From: Escherichia phage KIT01
Sequence record: AP019521.1
Reading direction: 5' to 3' (one strand)
DNA length: 64,000 nt
Shown here: one piece after another, positions 2,565-63,754 of the stretch
Numbering within the stretch: the stretch's first letter is position 1
Layout of the letters: each line of letters opens with the position of its first letter
Program-made: the position numbers and the translations under genes
Notes under the pieces: generated by a model
The model's database searches: none
What the model saw: only the letters and a program-made list of their open reading frames with translations
Told to the model about the DNA's origin: nothing

Positions 2565-3158
2565 TTACTTAAGTGAATTAATGTAGTCGTCGATATCGGC
2601 AGAAGTCGTATCCATTCCAACTTGCGGGCCTTTAAACGTTTCTACACGCAGTAGGGTGTCTTCAATATCAATCTTAGTCAGTGCAGCGATTTCAACAACA
2701 TCATCGGCAGTAGCAATACCAAGGGCAGCCATATTACGAGTTTCACGGATATACTCGAGCTTAACGGCCAGTTCCTGACGAGAGTCATCAAGTTCCTTAA
2801 CCTTCAGTTTAATTTCATTACGCATTTCGATATAATCATCAGCTTTCTTACGAAGCTGAGTAGCTGTACGACGATAAAGGAGGCCAAGTTTAGCATGTAC
2901 CTGGACATCAGCGCCTTCGGCAATCAGTTTACGAATTTCACGTTCTTTAGAAGCAGCGAGCTGGTCCTTTTCATTAGCCAATGCACGAATACGTTTTTCT
3001 TCATTCACGGACTTAACATGAGCAGTCTGGAGTTCAGTAATTTTATCAATCAGGGTAGAAGCAGCTTTGGTGTATTGGTCTTCGATTGACAGGTTCTGAG
3101 TCATCGCGGTGCCCAGTTTAGAACGAATGAATTCAACGATTTTCTTTAAAGTGTTCAT
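2565..3158 (-). CDS. coiled-coil protein, possibly PspA/IM30-like
   Basis: 197 aa, heptad-rich Lys/Glu/Arg sequence with loose resemblance to PspA N-terminal region; early-type promoter upstream. Confidence 0.4.
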
Positions 3159-3202
3159 AGTATTTCCTTCAGTTGGTTAACGTTTTGTAATCCATGAGGA
3201 CA

Positions 3203-3232
3203 TTATACCCTGTCCTCTGAGGGTTGTAAACA
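3203..3232 (-). promoter_or_regulatory. sigma70 early-type promoter (GTTTAC -35, TATAAT -10)
   Basis: minus strand GTTTACA-N17/18-TATAAT upstream of gene 2565..3158. Confidence 0.5.
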
Positions 3233-3234
3233 TT

Positions 3235-3636
3235 TTATTTCATTTTTGCTAGGCAGATTTCATTGGCTTCCCATTGAGCTTGCTTAATAATAGCTTTGGA
3301 TACAGGAACCCTTTGGCCATAAATTTTTGACGTTGAGAGAACAATATATTTGTTTGCCTCATTATGCCATCCTACTGATTTTTCGCCATGAGTACCTTTA
3401 ACTACAGCAGACACCTCAACAGAGCAGCCATCAGAACTAATCTTGGTGTCTACAATCCATTCATTTCTCTCGGCAGCTTCAATTTCCGATCTCATTTTTT
3501 CTTCATACATGGCTGCCCAATCAGTTTTCGCCAAGTTGAAAGTAAGAGCTTTCTCTAATTCTTTGGCGGCTTTTTGTTGTTCAGGTGTTAATGAATTATA
3601 CAACTCTTGCATTTCTTTATCTTCGATATTCATCAT
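3235..3636 (-). CDS. hypothetical protein
   Basis: 133-aa ORF with GAGGAG RBS and early-type promoter upstream. Confidence 0.45.
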   Translation of the reverse strand: MMNIEDKEMQELYNSLTPEQQKAAKELEKALTFNLAKTDWAAMYEEKMRSEIEAAERNEWIVDTKISSDGCSVEVSAVVKGTHGEKSVGWHNEANKYIVLSTSKIYGQRVPVSKAIIKQAQWEANEICLAKMK

Positions 3637-3659
3637 GCTCTCCTCAAATTATAGGGCTC

Positions 3660-3690
3660 ATAATATCTTAATCATGAGCCCATGTAAACA
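3660..3690 (-). promoter_or_regulatory. sigma70 early-type promoter
   Basis: minus strand GTTTACA ... TATTAT upstream of gene 3235..3636. Confidence 0.45.
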
Positions 3691-3692
3691 TT

Positions 3693-3971
3693 TTATTTCA
3701 TATTATTGAAATAATCTTCTGCATCAAAATCGTTATCATGATAAACTTTGGTAGACGATTTGGCGTAGCCTTCAGCTGAGAACATATTAATCACAACTTT
3801 AATTGTATACCACTGTCCATCTTCATTACCCATTACTGCATAGGTTTCATACACTGGGTGTTCAGGACCGATAACTTTAATATCGTTAACAGTAGCACCA
3901 AATTCTTCAGGAACGCATTTCATAAAGAAATTAAACAATTCACCATAATTATCCATTTTACTCTCCTTCAC
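3693..3971 (-). CDS. hypothetical protein
   Basis: 92-aa ORF; aaggag RBS (plus-strand ctcctt 3963-3968); conserved promoter-leader cassette upstream. Confidence 0.45.
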   Translation of the reverse strand: MKESKMDNYGELFNFFMKCVPEEFGATVNDIKVIGPEHPVYETYAVMGNEDGQWYTIKVVINMFSAEGYAKSSTKVYHDNDFDAEDYFNNMK

Positions 3972-3991
3972 ACTGTTGTTTTGATAGGTCT

Positions 3992-4020
3992 ATAGTATCA
4001 TGTTTAAAGGAGGTGTAAAC
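3992..4020 (-). promoter_or_regulatory. sigma70 early-type promoter with conserved leader TACTATAGACCTATCAAAAC
   Basis: minus strand GTTTACA-N17-TACTAT; cassette repeated at 7280, 7848, 41716. Confidence 0.5.
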
Positions 4021-4049
4021 AACTTTGTGAAATTATTTTTAGTTTAAAC

Positions 4050-4074
4050 CCCCAAAAAGGAGACCGAAGTCTCC
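4050..4074 (-). terminator. intrinsic terminator after IPIII-like gene
   Basis: hairpin ggagac-TTCG-gtctcc followed on minus strand by UUUUUGGGGGUUU. Confidence 0.6.
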
Positions 4075-4079
4075 TTTCA

Positions 4080-4688
4080 TTATTTACGAGTCTTTTCGAA
4101 CTGTGCTGCGTCACCTGCAAGGCGGCCCGCTTGGCGAAGTTTGTTATTGATTTCTTCGCGCATAGGCTGGGTATACTTAAGGCCTTCAACCGTCAGATAG
4201 AGACGATACAGGTCTGGGGTATCCAGGTTGTTAATGTGTTGACCATTACGAAGAGCGTTGAATTCACGAACAAGGTGTTTAGTTTCAGATTCGATTTCAG
4301 AAACTAAAGAAGCCAGTTGGTTATATTTTTTAACTATAGTGCTGGTGTCAAACTTGATTTTAGATTTAGGAGCTTCTTTTACAGGTTCTGGTTTAGGCGT
4401 CGGTTTCGGTGTTGCAACTTTGGGCTGAGCCGCAGGTTTAGCAACAGGAGCTTTAGCAGGTTTAGCAGCGCCACCAGCTACTATATCTTTAAAAGCTTTG
4501 GAAGCTTTGTAATATTCTTTCTGGCTGCTAGTATCAAAACCATACATATCATAGACGTTTTTAAAGAATTCGGTGGTGGTTTTAGTCCCAGAAATTTTAT
4601 CATAAGCTGCTTGCCACATATCTTTAGTCATGCGGATGCCGGCTTCACTCAGAACGCTTTCGTTCAAAAATTCATTGTAAGTTTTCAT
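4080..4688 (-). CDS. internal protein, IPIII-like, with N-terminal capsid targeting sequence
   Basis: 202 aa (T4 IPIII about 193); N-terminus MKTYNEFLNE matches T4 CTS consensus MKTYQEFIAE; Ala/Pro/Lys-rich linker; late promoter TATAAATA upstream. Confidence 0.6.
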   Translation of the reverse strand: MKTYNEFLNESVLSEAGIRMTKDMWQAAYDKISGTKTTTEFFKNVYDMYGFDTSSQKEYYKASKAFKDIVAGGAAKPAKAPVAKPAAQPKVATPKPTPKPEPVKEAPKSKIKFDTSTIVKKYNQLASLVSEIESETKHLVREFNALRNGQHINNLDTPDLYRLYLTVEGLKYTQPMREEINNKLRQAGRLAGDAAQFEKTRK

Positions 4689-4716
4689 TGGTATTTCCTA
4701 AGTTAATTAACTTATC

Positions 4717-4724
4717 TATTTATA
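4717..4724 (-). promoter_or_regulatory. T4-type late promoter TATAAATA
   Basis: exact TATAAATA on minus strand upstream of IPIII-like gene. Confidence 0.6.
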
Positions 4725-4756: not shown

Positions 4757-5311
4757 TCAATTCTTATAGAATCGGAACGGGTTTACGTGGAAGGCTAACA
4801 TAGCCTTAGGGATTTTACGAGACAAAAGACTCTTAAGTTTCCAACCGCAGTATACTCGTAGGTAAAAGGTAATCCCACCAACCTTAAGATATGGAACCGA
4901 AGCAAAGACTCCCCAGGCGTCGTCATTCCACATCCATAGCCACCCATGATGAGCTTTATCAGGAGAACCTGATTCCACATCGGGATTACCACGATAATGG
5001 AATTCTGAGCTACAATCACGGCCGAGTTTATGGTAAGCAAAGTTATAAGCTTTATTTCGCCACAACCAGGCTACTCGTTGAAGGTATATGCCTAAAGGTA
5101 GTTTTCTTATTTTAGCCCAACGTTTAATGTGACCTTTATCACCGTCAATTGGATTATCGTATGTCATCATCCAATCAAAGCCGTACGGCAATTTACCAGT
5201 CTTTTTATTGTGGAAAGGAACTACAAAAGGTGCAAGGATAACAGCCAGAACCATAGAGATAAAATCTAGTGGGACCAACAGAACCCAACTCAAATATTTT
5301 AAAAGTTTCAT
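4757..5311 (-). CDS. hypothetical protein with N-terminal hydrophobic segment
   Basis: 184 aa; late promoter TATAAATA at 5338-5345 and same upstream cassette as the IPIII-like gene. Confidence 0.45.
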   Translation of the reverse strand: MKLLKYLSWVLLVPLDFISMVLAVILAPFVVPFHNKKTGKLPYGFDWMMTYDNPIDGDKGHIKRWAKIRKLPLGIYLQRVAWLWRNKAYNFAYHKLGRDCSSEFHYRGNPDVESGSPDKAHHGWLWMWNDDAWGVFASVPYLKVGGITFYLRVYCGWKLKSLLSRKIPKAMLAFHVNPFRFYKN

Positions 5312-5756: not shown

Positions 5757-5831
5757 TGGTATCCCGCCCTGGGATCGAACCAGGACCGCAAACTTAGAAG
5801 GATCGTATGCTATCCATTACACCAGCGGGAC
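5757..5831 (-). tRNA. tRNA-Arg (anticodon UCU), CCA encoded
   Basis: manual cloverleaf: 7-bp acceptor GTCCCGC/GCGGGAT, T-arm CCTGG-TTCGATC-CCAGG, anticodon loop CTTCTAA with U33 and A37; one mismatch in anticodon stem. Confidence 0.7.
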
Positions 5832-5836
5832 GTAGT

Positions 5837-5913
5837 TGGTGACCCAGACCAGATTTGAACTGGTAACCTTTCCCTTATGAGGGGACTGCTGCTAACCATT
5901 GAGCTACAGGGCC
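5837..5913 (-). tRNA. tRNA with CAU anticodon (Ile-lysidine type or Met), CCA encoded
   Basis: manual fold: acceptor GGCCCTG/CTGGGTC (one mismatch), U8, D-arm GCTCAATGGTTAGC, anticodon loop CTCATAA, T-arm ACCAG-TTCAAAT-CTGGT. Confidence 0.6.
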
Positions 5914-6650: not shown

Positions 6651-7058
6651 TTAACCCTCGTCTACAATAGTATGGGTATTAGCATTAACAATCTGCCACC
6701 AGTCACAGTCAAAACGATTAGAACCGTAACGAGGCTTTTTCTCATTTTCGTTAATAATATCACGTAGTTCGTCTTCAGAAAATGCTTTAGCGATTAAATC
6801 GGTATAGCCGCCACGTGGATAATAGTTATCACCTGCGAACAGAAGGAAATTTACTTTACCAGAAGGAACATATGCTTCCTTAGAGTACTTGTTTCCTGCA
6901 TGGTCTACCACTTCAATATAACGATAAGGGATATCGGTACTTTCAACCCATTGCCAAGCTGCAGCAGGGGATTCAAAAGCATCTACACCTAAACGGTTAT
7001 CTTCATCTTTAGACGGATTATTTTCATAATCCGCATATACATAATATTCAACGTTCAT
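6651..7058 (-). CDS. hypothetical protein
   Basis: 135-aa ORF in tightly packed operon. Confidence 0.45.
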   Translation of the reverse strand: MNVEYYVYADYENNPSKDEDNRLGVDAFESPAAAWQWVESTDIPYRYIEVVDHAGNKYSKEAYVPSGKVNFLLFAGDNYYPRGGYTDLIAKAFSEDELRDIINENEKKPRYGSNRFDCDWWQIVNANTHTIVDEG

Positions 7059-7243
7059 TATTCACCTTTAGAGATTTTATCCATAACGAAAGAAATTGAA
7101 CCAATTAAGAATGCCACTACTAAAGAGATTATATTCTCTGAAGTTGAAAGCATATCGAGCATGAATCCTGCAAACATACTAAAGCCAAAAGCAGTAACAG
7201 CGGCCAGTGCAGTAACATTTCTAATTAATTCACAACGTTTCAT
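7058..7243 (-). CDS. small membrane protein
   Basis: ORF 7058..7255 trimmed to ATG at 7243 behind ggagaataaa RBS; hydrophobic core VTALAAVTAFGFSMFAGF. Confidence 0.4.
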   Translation of the reverse strand: MKRCELIRNVTALAAVTAFGFSMFAGFMLDMLSTSENIISLVVAFLIGSISFVMDKISKGE

Positions 7244-7279
7244 TTTATTCTCCAATCACTCATTTGTTTTGATAGGGCT

Positions 7280-7309
7280 ATAGTACCATCACTAAAGCCC
7301 GTTGTAAAC
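7280..7309 (-). promoter_or_regulatory. sigma70 early-type promoter (cassette copy)
   Basis: GTTTACA ... TACTATAGCCCTATCAAAAC upstream of 7058..7243. Confidence 0.5.
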
Positions 7310-7311
7310 AA

Positions 7312-7584
7312 TTATTTTAAATAAATTGCATATTTTTTATAACCAGCCGTCTCGTGACGCAGTCCTTTTTCATTAGCAAAACGTTCAATATTGTTAATTT
7401 GATTCTGGTCGAGTTCTGAAGTATCAAAAACAAAAAAGTTTCGCTTATTGCCTAAAGTTACGTGATTAGTCAAATCGATGTTATAGAGATGATTTATATC
7501 ATCAATCATAGTCTTAACAGATTTGTTAATTTTTACTTCTTCATTAAGAAGAGATTCAGCGATAAATTCTTGGTATGATTTCAT
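7312..7584 (-). CDS. internal-protein-like protein with capsid targeting sequence
   Basis: 90 aa, N-terminus MKSYQEFIAE. Confidence 0.55.
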   Translation of the reverse strand: MKSYQEFIAESLLNEEVKINKSVKTMIDDINHLYNIDLTNHVTLGNKRNFFVFDTSELDQNQINNIERFANEKGLRHETAGYKKYAIYLK

Positions 7585-7585
7585 T

Positions 7586-7810
7586 TTATTCAGCGCCAGC
7601 GGCTTTCAAAAGTTTTTTAAGGTTGGCTATGCCGCCAGCAGAAAACGTGACCTTGCCACCTTTTTCATTGATAGAGCCAGTCAATTTAGCAAGCTTATCA
7701 CTAGGGACTTTTTTAAAATCAGCCAGTGTGCCATCAAAGGTTTTTGTAACAATTGGCAGTTCATCTTCATGTCTTTTAGCTTCGGTGATAAATTCTTGAT
7801 AAGTTTTCAT
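7586..7810 (-). CDS. internal-protein-like protein with capsid targeting sequence (IPI-position)
   Basis: ORF 7586..7822 trimmed to ATG at 7810 behind ggagaataaa; N-terminus MKTYQEFITE; lies next to 57B as ipI is recalled to in T4. Confidence 0.55.
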   Translation of the reverse strand: MKTYQEFITEAKRHEDELPIVTKTFDGTLADFKKVPSDKLAKLTGSINEKGGKVTFSAGGIANLKKLLKAAGAE

Positions 7811-7847
7811 TTTATTCTCCATTTCACTCTGTTGTTTTGATAGGTCT

Positions 7848-7876
7848 ATAGTATCATGCCTATAGACCTTGTAAAC
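7848..7876 (-). promoter_or_regulatory. sigma70 early-type promoter (cassette copy)
   Basis: GTTTACA ... TACTATAGACCTATCAAAAC upstream of IP-like gene 7586..7810. Confidence 0.5.
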
Positions 7877-7888
7877 ACCTTTTTTAAA

Positions 7889-8581
<693 letters not shown>

Positions 8582-41360: not shown

Positions 41361-41376
41361 GATATAACCTTATTAT

Positions 41377-41400
41377 GGGAGACTTCGGTCTCCCATTCTT
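41377..41400 (+). terminator. intrinsic terminator after gp23
   Basis: gggagac-TTCG-gtctccc followed by attcttgttt. Confidence 0.6.
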
Positions 41401-41409
41401 GTTTCTGTA

Positions 41410-41676
41410 CTATGCAATCTTAACTCGGCGGTTGATGATATCACGGAAGTCAATACGATTTTCTTGGATTTTCAGCCAGTTACCAGATTTGTCTTTGGTA
41501 TGGGTAGAGTATTCACCGTTCCACCAGAAGTCAGTTTCATAAGCCAGAGCTTCGTATTTCTTAACCAATGCATTAACTGCATTACCGTTAGGATTGGTAC
41601 CGAATTTTTCTACCAGAGCTTTGATGTCTTTGTCAAGGTTAGAAAGCGTGGTACGGATAAAGTTTAATTTGTTCAT
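41410..41676 (-). CDS. hypothetical protein between genes 23 and 24
   Basis: ORF 41410..41691 trimmed to ATG at 41676 behind GAGGAG; early-type promoter upstream. Confidence 0.45.
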   Translation of the reverse strand: MNKLNFIRTTLSNLDKDIKALVEKFGTNPNGNAVNALVKKYEALAYETDFWWNGEYSTHTKDKSGNWLKIQENRIDFRDIINRRVKIA

Positions 41677-41715
41677 TTTTAATCTCCTCATGTTTTGATA
41701 GGTCTATAGTAACAC

Positions 41716-41745
41716 GACGCTTTTTGTGTGTAAACCACTTTTATA
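41716..41745 (-). promoter_or_regulatory. sigma70 early-type promoter (cassette copy)
   Basis: GTTTACA ... TACTATAGACCTATCAAAAC upstream of 41410..41676. Confidence 0.5.
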
Positions 41746-41751
41746 AATAAA

Positions 41752-41759
41752 ATTATATT
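41752..41759 (+). promoter_or_regulatory. late promoter TATAAATA upstream of gp24
   Basis: exact octamer. Confidence 0.65.
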
Positions 41760-41778
41760 CTCAATAAGGAAAATAGCA

Positions 41779-44213: not shown

Positions 44214-44434
44214 TACTTTGAACTAGAACGCGCTTTGCGCCGAACCTTGTTGTTCAATCTTTTACGATAAACAACCTTTTCTTTCGATTTAAACTTGGCC
44301 TTGGCTTGTTCCACATCAACCCATGCTTTGGCCATGTCCTTAGCGGTACCACCTAATTTTTTAGCAATTTCTATAAAATTCAGTCCAGATTCGTGTAAAA
44401 AATGTACTTTAACCTTATCCATAACAATTCTCAT
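44213..44434 (-). CDS. small basic protein, possible helix-turn-helix
   Basis: 73 aa; GLNFIEIAKKLGGTAKDMAKAW then Lys/Arg-rich tail; early-type promoter upstream; no clear RBS. Confidence 0.35.
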   Translation of the reverse strand: MRIVMDKVKVHFLHESGLNFIEIAKKLGGTAKDMAKAWVDVEQAKAKFKSKEKVVYRKRLNNKVRRKARSSSK

Positions 44435-44491
44435 ATTAAGTGCGTAAATCTATACTACCATGAGAATTTTAACTTGTAAACAGGAAATTTT

Positions 44492-59233: not shown

Positions 59234-59524
59234 TTATTTACGGAACGAAATGAAACCTGCTGTGGTCATTAGTGGTTGCTTTTTAACAAAGACCGTGATA
59301 GAAATAGGAGCTTCAGATTCAAGCTGACCGGTTACTACACCATTAAAGATATTTTCAGTTTGTTCTGGATGAGAAAAATTCTCAACAGGTCGGATATCAA
59401 ACTGTTTGTCTTCACCGAAAACTCGACGTAATTCATTACCTACTGCACTGTCAAACTCTTCGGAAGCAGGGATAACGTTTTCAACCACCAGTTCTTGACC
59501 ATTAAAACGGAATGCAGATTTCAT
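59234..59524 (-). CDS. hypothetical protein downstream of alt
   Basis: 96-aa ORF; early-type promoter at about 59535-59575. Confidence 0.4.
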   Translation of the reverse strand: MKSAFRFNGQELVVENVIPASEEFDSAVGNELRRVFGEDKQFDIRPVENFSHPEQTENIFNGVVTGQLESEAPISITVFVKKQPLMTTAGFISFRK

Positions 59525-59581
59525 AATGTTCTCCTCATGTTTGTGTAAGGTAATAGTACCACATCCTTGTGGTGTTGTAAA

Positions 59582-61705
59582 CTACATTTTGAATTTATTT
59601 GATAAAGAAGAGATATCCAAAGACGCGGCAAGGATTTCCATAGCTTCGTTGCTTTCAGAAACGGATTCATTAACCAAGAATTGACTGAATCCATCCATCA
59701 GGCGAACTTCACCAGTTTCCATCAAATGGTCACCATCGTAAACAGATTCGCTGAGCTCTGAAGGAGGCGTTACGGTAGCTTCCATAAGGTATTTGTGAGA
59801 TACTCTATCATTCATGGCAAAAGCCGCTACTTTATCAACCTTCAACAATAATCCACGCGGAAGGATAATTTCTGCTTCTTCGGCATATTCTGTAAGGTCA
59901 CCAGGAGCGATAACTTTAACTGCTTCAGCACCTCGAATAACCATACCAATTTCAGCAATTCTATCCGCAGGACCTTCAGGTGCAATTGGATTACCGAACT
60001 CGTCTTCTTCCCATTCTACCTCTTCGTCATCGACTTCACCCACATCAGATGAACTACCACTAGCCAATTTAAACAACTCATCAGCAGAGGATAAAGAACC
60101 TTCACCACCAACAAAAACGGCTTGGTTGTCGAGGGCCATATAATTTTTACCAAATTCACCAAAGATGTTAGGCTTTAATGAGGCTGACACAAAGTTCTTA
60201 AAGTAAAATGTTTTGTTATCGATATTATGGCGCAGAATTTTGTATGGCAAATCCTGACCACGATACAAAATAGTACCCTTAGGAAGTTTAATACCCTTAG
60301 TAAATGCTGAGTCTAAATCCTTAATCAATTTAATAGCCGTTGTATTGTTTTCGGATTCAGGTTTACCTAAAAGGAATAAGTTCATAGGAGCATATTCAGC
60401 CGCGCAATATTCAATAATAGCATTGCTTTCGTCTTTGGTTAGGTCCTTAGGTTTAATGAGCTCGCCTGAATAAGCATATGCATCACTAATAGAATCGTTA
60501 ACCAGTTTATAAACGGCTTCCATAGCGAAAGCAATTCGAGATGCTTTCTCTGAAGGGGAACCCTTAAAACGGGTACTCAGGTTATTAACAATTTTCTTAA
60601 TAATATCCAGACTATTGGTTGTATTGATTTGCGAAAGGCCACTTAAAAGTCTATCGACTTCTGTATTAAAAAATGCCATATTATTAGAGTAAATTTCAAA
60701 CCCTTGTTTATCTCTATTAGCATAATTTAGTTTAAATTTACTATCAGTCATTAAAGCGTGTGTGAGAGCAATAGTGTATCTAAAGTTGGCAAGGTCCTCG
60801 CTCTTAGATTTAAACTGAGAAGCCTGGCGCATTTTAGTAATAGCACCTTTTTTAAAGTTCTGACTAATCTGTTCAATACCTTCGTTCTCAGGGCCTTCAG
60901 CCGTGTGAACCGGTACAGAAGCTTCAAACTCGTTATAAACCTGCAATTCTTTAGGGGACAAAGTTTCAGGCTCAGCAGTAGAATACTGCGCGGCCGCTGC
61001 CATACGACGCGAAATCTTAGTACGAGTAATAACAGCCTTATCAGTACGTTTCTCTTCAACTTGTGCAATAGATGCCGCTACGGCTTCGACCTTACTTACG
61101 GCCTGGCCAGTTTTCTTAGAAACATACACTTCGCCAACTTTAGACTCAACTTTAGTATAAAGATCGGCATTAATTTCAGGCATACCCTTGATATCTTCAA
61201 TATTAGCACCACGACGTACTAAAAGAACGTAGGTATGTTTTCCGCTGAATTGGAACATGTCGTCAACAACTTTAAACTTACCACCGGTACGAGCCATAGC
61301 CAAACGAGCTAATACGCGCTGGACGGTAGGACCTTTACCTTTCATTTTCTTAGTAGGGAAACGGAACAAAACCGCGTCCATTTTAAGTTTGTTTACTTGT
61401 TCGTATATGGTATCGAAAATGGTGTTCAGTGTACCGAGTGGATCGGTACCCAAACCACCCTTGAGTTCTGCCGGAGCGCCTTTAGCAGATAAACTCATTA
61501 AGATAACATGGACGTACTTATCACCATTTTTAACCATCTTAATAGCGTCGCCTTCAGACGCATAAGATACCATACGTGCTACTAAATTGTCATTACCAGG
61601 AGCATGTACCGCAAAAATCTGCGGTACGCCTGAGCCAGGTTTAAGATTTGTTACTGGGTAATTTTTTTTATCGCTTTTATCAAAAACTTCGTTTAAATTT
61701 TCCAT
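59582..61705 (-). CDS. alt: Alt-like ADP-ribosyltransferase, paralog 1
   Basis: 707 aa (T4 Alt 682); N-terminus and ...YTKVESKVGEVYVSKKTG... match recalled T4 Alt; ART motifs LYRGQ, FVSASL, EEAEIILPRG; C-terminal DGDHLMETGE. Confidence 0.9.
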   Translation of the reverse strand: MENLNEVFDKSDKKNYPVTNLKPGSGVPQIFAVHAPGNDNLVARMVSYASEGDAIKMVKNGDKYVHVILMSLSAKGAPAELKGGLGTDPLGTLNTIFDTIYEQVNKLKMDAVLFRFPTKKMKGKGPTVQRVLARLAMARTGGKFKVVDDMFQFSGKHTYVLLVRRGANIEDIKGMPEINADLYTKVESKVGEVYVSKKTGQAVSKVEAVAASIAQVEEKRTDKAVITRTKISRRMAAAAQYSTAEPETLSPKELQVYNEFEASVPVHTAEGPENEGIEQISQNFKKGAITKMRQASQFKSKSEDLANFRYTIALTHALMTDSKFKLNYANRDKQGFEIYSNNMAFFNTEVDRLLSGLSQINTTNSLDIIKKIVNNLSTRFKGSPSEKASRIAFAMEAVYKLVNDSISDAYAYSGELIKPKDLTKDESNAIIEYCAAEYAPMNLFLLGKPESENNTTAIKLIKDLDSAFTKGIKLPKGTILYRGQDLPYKILRHNIDNKTFYFKNFVSASLKPNIFGEFGKNYMALDNQAVFVGGEGSLSSADELFKLASGSSSDVGEVDDEEVEWEEDEFGNPIAPEGPADRIAEIGMVIRGAEAVKVIAPGDLTEYAEEAEIILPRGLLLKVDKVAAFAMNDRVSHKYLMEATVTPPSELSESVYDGDHLMETGEVRLMDGFSQFLVNESVSESNEAMEILAASLDISSLSNKFKM

Positions 61706-61708
61706 TAT

Positions 61709-63754
61709 TTACCCTTGGGTGAATTTTTCTGGGGTTTCGTCAAAATTAATACATGAAGCTAAAATAGGCATTATATCCACCTTGGTCGATTTGACGAATG
61801 AATCAAAAGACACAGGGTTGTCGGTCTCTGTTTCTACGCCTTGGTAAACAACCAATTCGCCGGTTTCCATCAATGCATCACCATCATAGATAACCGCATT
61901 TTCTGCTAGTTGGTCTGTGGTCTGGATGTCAGCTTCCAATAATTTGGTGTTGTAGTTTCCTTTATATGAGGCATCTGTAATTTTAGTAATCTTAACAGTA
62001 GTTCCACGTGGAAGAATAACCTCTTGTTCTGTTGGAGAACCTGACAATTCACCGGGCACAATTACGTTAATAGAGTCTGCACCGGAAATTTTCCAACCGA
62101 TGTTCATCATTGTATTTTCGGAACTCGTCAGCATACTTGGAAGAACAATTTCATTATCGCCTTGGAAAGATGTCCCAGCACGATAGTCCTGATGAACTGC
62201 GGCCATTGCGACGTTTGATACCCAGCCGCCAAAGATAATCGGCTTAAGGGACGTTGATACATAGTTCCTGAAATAAAACAATTTTGAGTGTTTGATTTTA
62301 TCAAAAGTGTTAACATTTAAATATTGACCACGCCAAAGTGTAATATCAGGTGGCAATTTATGGCCAATTTCAAATGCCGCATCCATATCATTAATTACTT
62401 CAATTACACGATAACTATCAATAAATTCTGCATCCTCTTCATAATAATTACCCAACAAATAATTATTAACATCGGTATAATATTGGCCGCAATAAGAAGA
62501 AATAGCCTCACGCTGCTCATACTCAAATCGATTATCGCTATAACTGGCTGTAAAATGCATAACACTTTCTGACGCTTCATTAGCAAAGTCGCTAACAGCA
62601 GCACTTATACGTTGAGCATACTCTTGTTCCCAAAGCTCTGCCGCATATTCTGCCGCATCCATATTAGGAGGAGCCTCATTCATTTTTCTTTCGATAAATG
62701 CAGCTTTGCGAAGGTTAAGAACCTCTGCACATGATTCGGCAAAAATCTGCATCTGCTTCATACTGCCGACAGGAGCACGTTTAAGTTCACGATGCATACG
62801 GTTAAAAATTGGGTCGGAGTCTTCGACTCGAATTTCTTCTTTCCAAACACCGTTTGCTCGCATAGCCATATCTGCCGCGCGCATACGCTCCATAGTATTC
62901 GTTTCAGAAGGTTGAATAAAAATTTCTAGTTCTTCATAATCATCGATAAGTTCTGCTGTTGCTGGGGCGCTAAATTTTGATGCCTCTGCATCAATCTCAT
63001 CCCAACCTTCCGGAACTTCATCTCGAGGAGAATACTGGGCTGCGGCTACAGCACGCCTAGAAATCTTGGTAGTAGTAATAACAGCCTTATCCGTACGTTT
63101 TTCTTCGACTGCAGCTATACTAGCAGATAGTGCTTCTATTTTGGTTACTGATTGGCCTGTTTTCTTGGATACATAAACCTCACCAACTTTAGACTCAACC
63201 TTAGTGTAAAGGTCTGCATCAATTTCAGGCATACCTTTTATGTCCTCAATATTAGCTTGTTTACGAACCAGTAAAACGTATGTATGTTTGCCTGTAAATT
63301 GATACAAATCATCGACAACTTTAAACTTGCCGCCAGTACGAGCCATCGCCAAACGTGCCAATACACGTTGAACAGTAGGACCTTTACCTTTCATTTTCTT
63401 GGTAGGGAACCGGAAAAGAACTGCATCCATACGAAGAGCTTTAACTTGTTCGTATACAGTATCAAAAATGGTATTCAGCGTACCAAGTGGGTCAGAACCT
63501 AACCCGCCTTTCAACTCGGCTGGGGTACCCTTAGCAGACAAACTCATCAAAATAACATGAACATATTTATCGCCCGGCTTAACCATTTTAATAGCGTCTC
63601 CTTGAGACGCATAAGATACCATACGAGCAACCAGGTTATCGTTACCTGGTGCTTGGATAGAGAAAATCTGTGGAATACCGGAACCCGGTTTAAGATTTAC
63701 TACTGGATAGTTTTTAGCGGAATCACTATCAAAAACCTCGTTTAAATTTTCCAT
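61709..63754 (-). CDS. Alt-like ADP-ribosyltransferase, paralog 2
   Basis: 681 aa; N-terminal about 230 aa near-identical to paralog 1, divergent centre; ART motifs LWRGQ, YVSTSL, EQEVILPRG. Confidence 0.9.
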   Translation of the reverse strand: MENLNEVFDSDSAKNYPVVNLKPGSGIPQIFSIQAPGNDNLVARMVSYASQGDAIKMVKPGDKYVHVILMSLSAKGTPAELKGGLGSDPLGTLNTIFDTVYEQVKALRMDAVLFRFPTKKMKGKGPTVQRVLARLAMARTGGKFKVVDDLYQFTGKHTYVLLVRKQANIEDIKGMPEIDADLYTKVESKVGEVYVSKKTGQSVTKIEALSASIAAVEEKRTDKAVITTTKISRRAVAAAQYSPRDEVPEGWDEIDAEASKFSAPATAELIDDYEELEIFIQPSETNTMERMRAADMAMRANGVWKEEIRVEDSDPIFNRMHRELKRAPVGSMKQMQIFAESCAEVLNLRKAAFIERKMNEAPPNMDAAEYAAELWEQEYAQRISAAVSDFANEASESVMHFTASYSDNRFEYEQREAISSYCGQYYTDVNNYLLGNYYEEDAEFIDSYRVIEVINDMDAAFEIGHKLPPDITLWRGQYLNVNTFDKIKHSKLFYFRNYVSTSLKPIIFGGWVSNVAMAAVHQDYRAGTSFQGDNEIVLPSMLTSSENTMMNIGWKISGADSINVIVPGELSGSPTEQEVILPRGTTVKITKITDASYKGNYNTKLLEADIQTTDQLAENAVIYDGDALMETGELVVYQGVETETDNPVSFDSFVKSTKVDIMPILASCINFDETPEKFTQG

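Follow-up and report, generated by a model that had tools for sequence, protein, structure and literature searches.

The consensus of T4 early promoters was reportedly set out by Liebig & Ruger 1989, Wilkens & Ruger and Miller et al. 2003, and the ipI locus is said to be where composite promoter cassettes were first noted, as the IP-locus elements of Repoila et al. 1994. T4 early promoters (Pe), as reviewed by Hinton 2010 (PMC2988021), show "additional regions of consensus" beyond the UP, -35, TGn and -10 elements (PMC2988021), and in RB69, RB49 and 44RR a C is favoured at -3 to -1 (PMC1524935). The PeSL cassettes known from RB49/phi1, PST/T4 and nt-1/KVP40 are composite repeats, in which an AT-rich block, an early promoter, a Shine-Dalgarno sequence (SD) and a start codon precede small variable genes at hyperplastic regions and indel borders (Arbiol 2010, PMC2839356; Comeau 2014, PMC4122927). 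The target consensus of RegB/S1 is GGAGAAUAAAA (Durand 2006, PMC1702504), and RegB is inhibited by secondary structure (PMC1702504). In T4, the genes e, soc, 49 and I-TevI are under translational control by alternative transcripts, with late promoters restricting translation to late times (PMC3014915).

Here, we analysed 64,000 nucleotides of Escherichia phage KIT01 (AP019521.1; the window), which share 93-97% identity with coliphages such as AnYang and QL01 and are related to IME08. Judged by these similarities, the window is that of a T4-like phage of the JS98/IME08 group, genus Dhakavirus, subfamily Tevenvirinae. The initial annotation had described near-identical elements in four minus-strand copies, and this description was borne out. 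The pattern TACTATAG(A/C)CCTATCAAAAC has 4 minus-strand matches in the window against 0.01 expected; the 20-mer TACTATAGACCTATCAAAAC occurs exactly in three copies and with 1 mismatch (AGCCCT) in copy 2 (Table 1). Shuffled sequence yielded a mean of 0.01 matches to the 20-mer, and 0 of 100 shuffles reached 4.

Each copy is preceded by one minus-strand GTTTAC hexamer, and in all four a spacer of 17-18 bp leads to a TGn placed directly before TACTAT. Alignment of the copies also reveals an A/T-rich, UP-like block, AAAATAATTTAAAAAAGTT, upstream of the -35. A generic sigma-70 scan, run independently, called all four as TTTACA-N16/17-TACTAT with TG, in agreement with the -35-like GTTTACA and -10-like TACTAT already proposed for each copy. 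The spacing given with them, GTTTACA-N17, is correct for copies 2 and 4, whereas copies 1 and 3 have N16. All four copies carry the features of a T4-type early promoter, namely GTTTAC(a), 17-18 bp to TAnnnT, an extended -10 and an UP-like A/T region; they are oriented with the early genes, have an SD and an ATG nearby, and occupy positions orthologous to those in IME08 and T4. Their description as early promoters with attached leaders ahead of small minus-strand genes is upheld, and the promoters are of sigma-70 type.

Our main reading, to which we assign a probability of about three in four, is that the four elements are T4-type early promoters, that the conserved block after the -10 is their own downstream module, and that the cassettes lie at the borders of variable segments. 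Such promoter-leader cassettes are an ordinary, known kind of element, and the novelty of the flagged finding is low. That there are four copies reflects the window, not the element.

Table 1. Positions of the promoter-leader cassettes, other early promoters and predicted pairings in the window
Feature	Position	Strand	Elements
Copy 1 cassette	3954..4045	-	UP-like block 4021-4045; -35 GTTTAC 4015-4020; spacer 3998-4014; TGa and -10 TACTAT 3992-3997; exact 20-mer 3978-3997
Copy 1 downstream part		-	block AGACCTATCAAAAC 3978-3991; predicted start A 3985; GGAGAGTAAAA 3956-3966; ATG 3954-3956
Copy 1 gene	3693-3956	-	e.8 homologue (e.8-like)
GC-rich stem-loop terminator AAAGGAGACCGAAGTCTCCTTT	4056..4077		~35 nt upstream of copy 1
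Copy 2 cassette	7241..7335	-	-35 7304-7309; 18-nt spacer; -10 7280-7285; block AGCCCTATCAAAAC 7266-7279; 20-mer with 1 mismatch 7266-7285
Copy 2 downstream part		-	predicted start A 7273; GGAGAATAAAA 7243-7253; ATG 7241-7243
Copy 2 gene	7058-7243	-	trna.4 homologue
Copy 3 cassette	7808..7900	-	-35 7871-7876; 17-nt spacer; -10 7848-7853; block 7834-7847; exact 20-mer 7834-7853
Copy 3 downstream part		-	predicted start A 7841; GGAGAATAAAA 7810-7820; ATG 7808-7810
Copy 3 genes		-	internal head protein gene MKTYQEFITEAK... 7586-7810, then second IP gene 7312-7584
Copy 4 cassette	41674..41760	-	-35 41730-41735; 18-nt spacer; -10 41706-41711; block 41692-41705; exact 20-mer 41692-41711
Copy 4 downstream part		-	predicted start A 41699; GGAGATTAAAA 41677-41687; ATG 41674-41676
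Copy 4 gene	41410-41676	-	88 aa, phrog_6003, antisense between genes 23 and 24
Diverged fifth member	59522..59600	-	-35 59577-59582; -10 TACTAT 59553-59558; then taccttacacAAACATGAGGAGAacattATG of alt.-3 homologue (59234-59524)
Early promoter without block	3156..3231	-	GTTTAC-N18-TATAAT; -10 3202-3207; GAGGAC and GTCCTC flank -10
Early promoter without block	3625..3689	-	GTTTAC-N18-TATTAT; -10 3660-3665; 11-bp hairpin 3654-3681 around -10, -17.8 kcal/mol, z -4.0
Early promoter without block	44420..44481	-	GTTTAC-N18-TAGTAT; -10 44452-44457; spacer AATTCTCAT complementary to ATGAGAATT at ribosome-binding region
Inverted repeat, copy 3	7842..7869	-	spacer AGGTCTATAG pairs with CTATAGACCT (-10 and discriminator); RNA fold -15.4 kcal/mol, z -4.6
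Inverted repeat, copy 2	7275..7300	-	GGGCTtTAG pairs with CTAtAGCCC; -13.5 kcal/mol, z -2.2
Long-range pairing, copy 1	3960..4014	-	spacer CCTCCTTT with SD region AAGGAGAG; -10 kcal/mol, z -1.8, weak

The elements share with T4 early promoters the GTTTAC -35, the 17-18 bp spacer, TGn, TAyTAT and the A/T-rich upstream block, and they precede the same early genes (e.8, trna.4, the ipI locus and alt.-3). They differ in that the -10 of this phage group is mostly TACTAT rather than TATAAT, and in that the region from -6 to +8 is far more uniform. With PeSL cassettes they share the composite build, from AT-rich block to start codon, and the setting before small variable genes at hyperplastic regions and indel borders. 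The ipI locus, between 57B and trna.4, is bracketed by copies 2 and 3, and both internal head protein genes there begin with the MKTYQEFI- capsid-targeting leader. In contrast to PeSL, the defining upstream stem-loop or terminator is found at copy 1 only, with none found upstream of copies 2, 3 and 4; recombination between the copies in the window is deduced from genome comparison alone; and copy 4 lies inside the late structural block.

Similarity between the cassettes extends beyond the 45-50 bp that had been reported for them, as the A/T-rich block upstream of the -35 is also alike and copies 1-3 remain alike through the leader to GGAGAnTAAAATG. Paralogous blastn matches between cassettes cover 81-131 bp at 74-95% identity. 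The AAAAC version with its shared leader marks a subfamily of promoter-leader cassettes of 85-130 bp. At copies 2 and 3, the ORF finder adds four codons (MENK-) to the genes starting at 7810 and 7243, beginning at ATGGAG or TTGGAG (7810-7822 and 7243-7255). What looks like a start in each case is the Shine-Dalgarno sequence GGAG; the true start codon is the ATG 7 nt downstream of GGAG.

The initial annotation had treated the block as a conserved leader special to four sites and longer than promoter function requires, and comparison with related genomes contradicts both points. The whole IME08 genome was assembled and every minus-strand GTTTAC-N17/18-TAnnnT site in it was listed. There are 43 such sites, the majority with nnnCCTATCAA directly after the -10; the commonest form is AGACCTATCAACTA, and AGACCTATCAAAAC is a sub-variant present at six loci. 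The resulting consensus of the IME08 group reads ..caTGaTAtTAT agaCCTATcAA (also written TGnTAyTAT agaCCTATcAA). Its logo has information maxima at -3 (C, 1.02 bit), -2 (C, 1.02 bit) and -1 (T, 0.73 bit), with 0.30-0.43 bit at +1 to +4 and 0.74 bit at +5 (A). A search of IME08 for TAnnnT-nnn-CYTATCAA gave 22 matches, 21 of them on the early-gene strand. Strict middle-promoter candidates in IME08 contain part of the block in 2 of 14 cases, a scarcity that would be expected from class-specific descent or a class-specific factor as much as from "optimal initiation". T4 has the same consensus in weaker form (TGgTAttAT A.acctATcaaaTa), with ~0.4 bit at -3/-2 against 1.0; its denV promoter reads TACTATAGACCTATCAACTA, and several other T4 promoters read TACTATACAACTATCAACTAC.

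What had been called a leader is a group-wide early-promoter consensus that spans -6 to about +8 and is best conserved ahead of the start site. It lies at a constant distance from the -10 and at varying distances from the SD and the ATG. Among the clear early promoters in the window, 3 of 8 lack the block and a fourth (59582) has a diverged version only; these three show that the block is not required for the early-promoter class. The related promoters previously listed at 3203, 3660, 44440 and 59535 all exist, and the leader is indeed missing from three of them, whereas the fourth is a diverged member with TACTATtaccttacacAAACATGAGGAGA. The contribution of this analysis is a phage-group-specific version of the T4 early-promoter consensus, in which the segment from -6 to +8 (a.aCCTATCAA) forms part of the early-promoter consensus across several T4-like genera. 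Such a consensus helps with the annotation of early transcription units and the design of strong promoters that start precisely.

Orthologous promoters were retrieved with the downstream protein as the query, so that the sample is unbiased as to promoter sequence. For the gene between g23 and g24, the sample comprised 8 genomes (seven IMG/VR loci and the window). The promoter is kept in 7 of these, with four very different spacer alleles; between the -10 and the ATG, 6 of the 8 genomes have the same sequence and one has a single G>A. The eighth genome, at 66% protein identity, has a different promoter from which the motif is absent. For trna.4, most of the 20 genomes compared, which represent several T4-like lineages, retain CC(T)ATCAA(C/A); among them are the Salmonella S16-type phage CGG4-1 and Enterobacter phages at ~50% protein identity. 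The spacer and positions -6 to -4 vary between lineages. The e.8 promoter has AGACCTATCAAAAC in Dhakavirus and ACAACTATCAACTAC in T4-type phages.

These observations are consistent with a mechanism in which the elements would act as very strong sigma-70-dependent promoters, a strength predicted from the UP-like block, GTTTAC(a), the 17-18 bp spacer, TGn and TAyTAT. The block AGACCTATCAAAAC would then supply the discriminator, the start site and the initial-transcribed part of the promoter. It acts most plausibly at the DNA level, since it keeps a constant position with respect to the -10 but not to the SD and ATG, and its conservation is highest ahead of the expected start. Sigma-70 promoters generally favour a purine start with an optimum 7 nt after the -10. 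The discriminator carries a G at -5, and the pyrimidines C-3, C-2 and T-1 around a lone purine A (CCT-A-TC), 7 nt from the -10, would favour one precise start with ATP; the start predicted in this way is an A in all four copies (Table 1). The block may also resemble the start regions of T5 N25, T7 A1 and lambda PL, and presumably does not fit the promoter consensus that favours NAD capping. By eye, TATCAAC has a half-site resemblance to IHF (WATCAANNNNTTR) and to the DnaA box.

With this start site, the supposed 15-nt transcribed leader is conserved as claimed, yet only ~8 of its 15 nt (ATCAAAAC) would be transcribed; the remainder, AGACCT, would be untranscribed discriminator. The initial transcribed sequence is predicted to be A-rich and G-free, and transcripts would begin AUCAAAAC... 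and carry leaders ending in GGAG(A)AUAAAA, which would combine the Shine-Dalgarno with a RegB/S1 site. For the four copies, the predicted leaders measure 23-31 nt and are A-rich, with folding energies of 0 to -1 kcal/mol and no G before +11 to +13. Measured against the 11-nt RegB/S1 consensus GGAGRAYARAA, the SD of copies 2 and 3 (GGAGAATAAAA) is an exact match to the T4 form, and copies 1 (GGAGAGTAAAA) and 4 (GGAGATTAAAA) differ at position 6 only, all within leaders predicted to be unstructured. The likeness lies at the leader's 3' end, outside the flagged block, and cleavage there is predicted from sequence; regB is present in the relative IME08. Each cassette would thereby deliver a burst of transcription and efficient early translation, followed by probable inactivation through RegB.

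An alternative is that early mRNAs carry the transcribed part of the block (AUCAAAAC/AUCAACUA) as a 5'-terminal RNA signal, which might enhance translation, offer S1 a standby site, determine stability or decay, or let a phage factor recognise the message. The 0.74 bit at +5 A and the occurrence of +1 to +8 in several genera speak for such a signal, as do the A/C-rich, G-poor and unstructured leaders, which resemble S1-binding sequences, and the RegB/S1-type sites in which all copies end. However, conservation is strongest at -3 to -1, which by prediction is untranscribed, and it is the distance to the -10 that is fixed, whereas that to the SD varies (leaders of 23-31 nt in the four copies, and visibly more in IME08). 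A RegB site, moreover, needs only 11 nt from GGA on (PMC1702504). A search of the whole window against Rfam 15 at the gathering threshold returned two tRNAs (5760-5913) only, and the block matched no family; a known cis-regulatory or small RNA family was dropped as a candidate on this result. A structured leader RNA is likewise unlikely at folding energies of 0 to -1 kcal/mol, and the earlier suggestion of a regulatory RNA leader finds no support in either result. We consider an RNA signal improbable as the main explanation, although RNA-level function may contribute to conservation, given +5 A and a leader that is conserved in its whole length within the subfamily. Less probable still is that the block from -6 to +8 is an operator through which a phage-encoded or phage-modified factor shuts early promoters off after 2-5 min. 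The block does overlap the start site and is found at ~25 of 43 early promoters against 2 of 14 candidate middle promoters, and reviews call the shut-off mechanism of early promoters unknown (PMC2988021, PMC3014915). Yet it has no dyad symmetry and no candidate binding protein, many early promoters lack it although the whole early class is shut off, and it is weakly conserved in T4, where shut-off was characterised. No result singles out the protein-binding site that had been suggested earlier.

The more serious competitor, although still unlikely in our estimate, is the view drawn from the PeSL model, that the block is kept mainly as homology for recombination and homogenised by gene conversion or crossing-over, without selection for transcription. 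The cassettes do behave as movable units. Related genomes have the exact block ahead of at least 10 different genes, and IME08 has an identical 46-bp promoter at two loci, 62989 and 71202. The leader of the IP gene in the window (7808-7833) is aacagagtgaaatggagaataaa; in IME08, QL01 and others the same leader sits on the unrelated MKLSNQ gene ~8 kb away, and the IP gene has aaactaaccaaacggaaatcaaa instead (compared at IME08 71160-71202 and 62950-62989). The sequences suggest that a patch was exchanged, with the promoter block and ATGAAA as its limits. Homology to IME08 breaks just upstream of copy 3. At copy 1, the segment 4056-4756, with a late promoter TATAAATA (~4716-4723), an IP-like gene (4080-4688, phrog_2280; capsid-targeting-type N-terminus MKTYNEFLNE) and the terminator, occurs in some Dhakavirus genomes but is missing from others (at least 3), and its joint adjoins the UP-like block. 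Copies 1-3 lie in the e-tRNA-ipI hyperplastic region, and the indels and the leader swap fall at cassette borders. Dispersed repeats of 81-131 bp at 74-95% identity, alternative upstream contexts that join just upstream of the -35, the published PeSL mini-circles and the finding that <50 bp of homology suffices in T4 (PMC2839356, PMC4122927) all favour recombination. The eLife 2022 study of T4 amplification was set aside as support for recombination at promoter repeats; it reports 2-10 bp microhomologies and has no bearing here.

Conversion should, however, homogenise the spacers, and these differ completely between copies and between alleles while the block is fixed; recombination alone is therefore insufficient to explain the conservation. 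Conservation is also position-specific, as in a functional motif, and persists across genera at ~50% protein identity. In 37 records, the copy-4 spacer allele of the window was found a single time per genome and at no other locus, so that intragenomic spacer swapping at copy 4 was rejected in favour of allelic variation. The earlier proposal of a recombination hotspot for cassette swapping thus holds as to movable cassettes, the leader swap and edge indels, all from genome comparison and in line with the PeSL/IP-locus model, and fails as a full account of the conservation. In the preferred reading of a promoter module, recombination most likely follows from the repeats and helps to spread them, rather than being the reason for conservation. 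Cassette copies at the borders of variable segments would allow homologous recombination to swap or delete small early genes, and they mark likely recombination joints in hyperplastic regions with host-range and anti-defence genes, including internal proteins. In QL01 and JS98-type genomes, the MKLSNQ-gene promoter has a degraded -35 (GTGTAC or GTATAC), with the -10, block and leader intact. Two further differences from IME08 were seen in the window. The 184-aa gene at 4757-5311 (phrog_2143) has no counterpart at this position in IME08, with homology to IME08 resuming at 5290 of the window, and the two tRNAs found by Rfam compare with three annotated at the corresponding place in IME08 (Arg, Asn and Met).

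The part of this analysis worth following up is the self-complementarity of the spacers. Early promoters of the window, IME08 and T4 tend to have -35/-10 spacers that are complementary to the discriminator, leader or SD of the same promoter. Copies 2 and 3 contain inverted repeats of this kind (Table 1), and the A-to-C change in the block of copy 2 is mirrored in its spacer. At the promoters at 3689 and 3231, hairpins enclose the -10 (3654-3681 and about 3200-3222), and a further case of complementarity covers 44420-44470. Pairing of the SD/AUG with sequence upstream of the start is predicted for copy 1 (z -1.8) and in part for copy 4 (z -1.2), while the hairpins of copies 2 and 3 leave the SD uncovered.

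Measured by the longest complementary run, a spacer pairs better with its own downstream sequence than with the downstream sequences of other promoters (permutation p ~2e-4 in both IME08 and T4, ~4e-4 in the window). Duplex energies, calculated with TGn and the -10 excluded (n=42 in IME08, n=27 in T4), average -8.8 kcal/mol for self pairs against -6.1 (IME08) and -5.3 (T4) for cross pairs, with p<=1e-4 in each. As a control, pairing of the spacer with its own upstream region showed no excess (p about 0.5). About three-quarters of the promoters have at least 5 pairs joining the spacer to the region after the -10, and in half of these cases the SD takes part. In T4, folding is better for the sense than for the antisense strand (p=1.3e-4); the difference is not significant in IME08. 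A hairpin persists among the trna.4 orthologues, built from different arms (ATGGGATA/TATCCCAT, ATAGGGTA/TACCCTAT, GAGGGTTAT/ATAACCCT and CTCCATTTG/CAAATGGAG). RNAalifold found no consensus structure among 13 trna.4-promoter orthologues, because the hairpin arms are out of register between lineages, so that the hairpin claim rests on per-sequence folds and permutation tests rather than on column covariation.

The 5' arm of such a hairpin is contained only in RNA that reads through from upstream. We tentatively suggest that the spacers of T-even-type early promoters evolved to pair with their own downstream sequence, either the discriminator and +1 or the SD/RegB site, such that read-through RNA would form a hairpin that the proximal transcript cannot, a general device for sorting proximal from read-through messages; we regard this as possible, if rather doubtful. 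Of the two novel readings, the operator for early shut-off is much the less likely. Possible uses are early-only translation, protection from RegB, or stabilisation of the 3' end of the upstream cistron. A mutational quasi-palindrome process may also be the source of the self-complementarity. As at e, soc, 49 and I-TevI, the promoter lies in or at the 5' arm of a helix, so that the long read-through RNA can fold (in some cases over the SD) and the promoter's own transcript cannot. Here, in contrast, the promoters are early, the helix is found at ~3/4 of them, and the SD is uncovered in half of those. By this analogy, a read-through hairpin at early promoters would mirror the late-only control of those four genes. 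If it is functional, translation or decay of many early genes would depend on which promoter made the RNA. In the literature examined, we found no description of spacer self-complementarity at early promoters.

Some minor features of the region were also seen. Antisense sigma-70-like matches (TTCACA/TTCACT-N18-TATAGT) lie on the + strand at 3967-3996 and 7823-7852; they result from the CTATAG palindrome in the -10 together with AGTGAA in the shared leader, and are probably incidental, although present in both copies. The copy-4 gene (Table 1), small and of early type, has an early promoter to itself and runs antisense to the late genes 23 and 24, between which it lies. At 41375-41396, the end of gene 23 and the end of this small antisense gene share a GC-rich hairpin, ATGGGAGACTTCGGTCTCCCAT.
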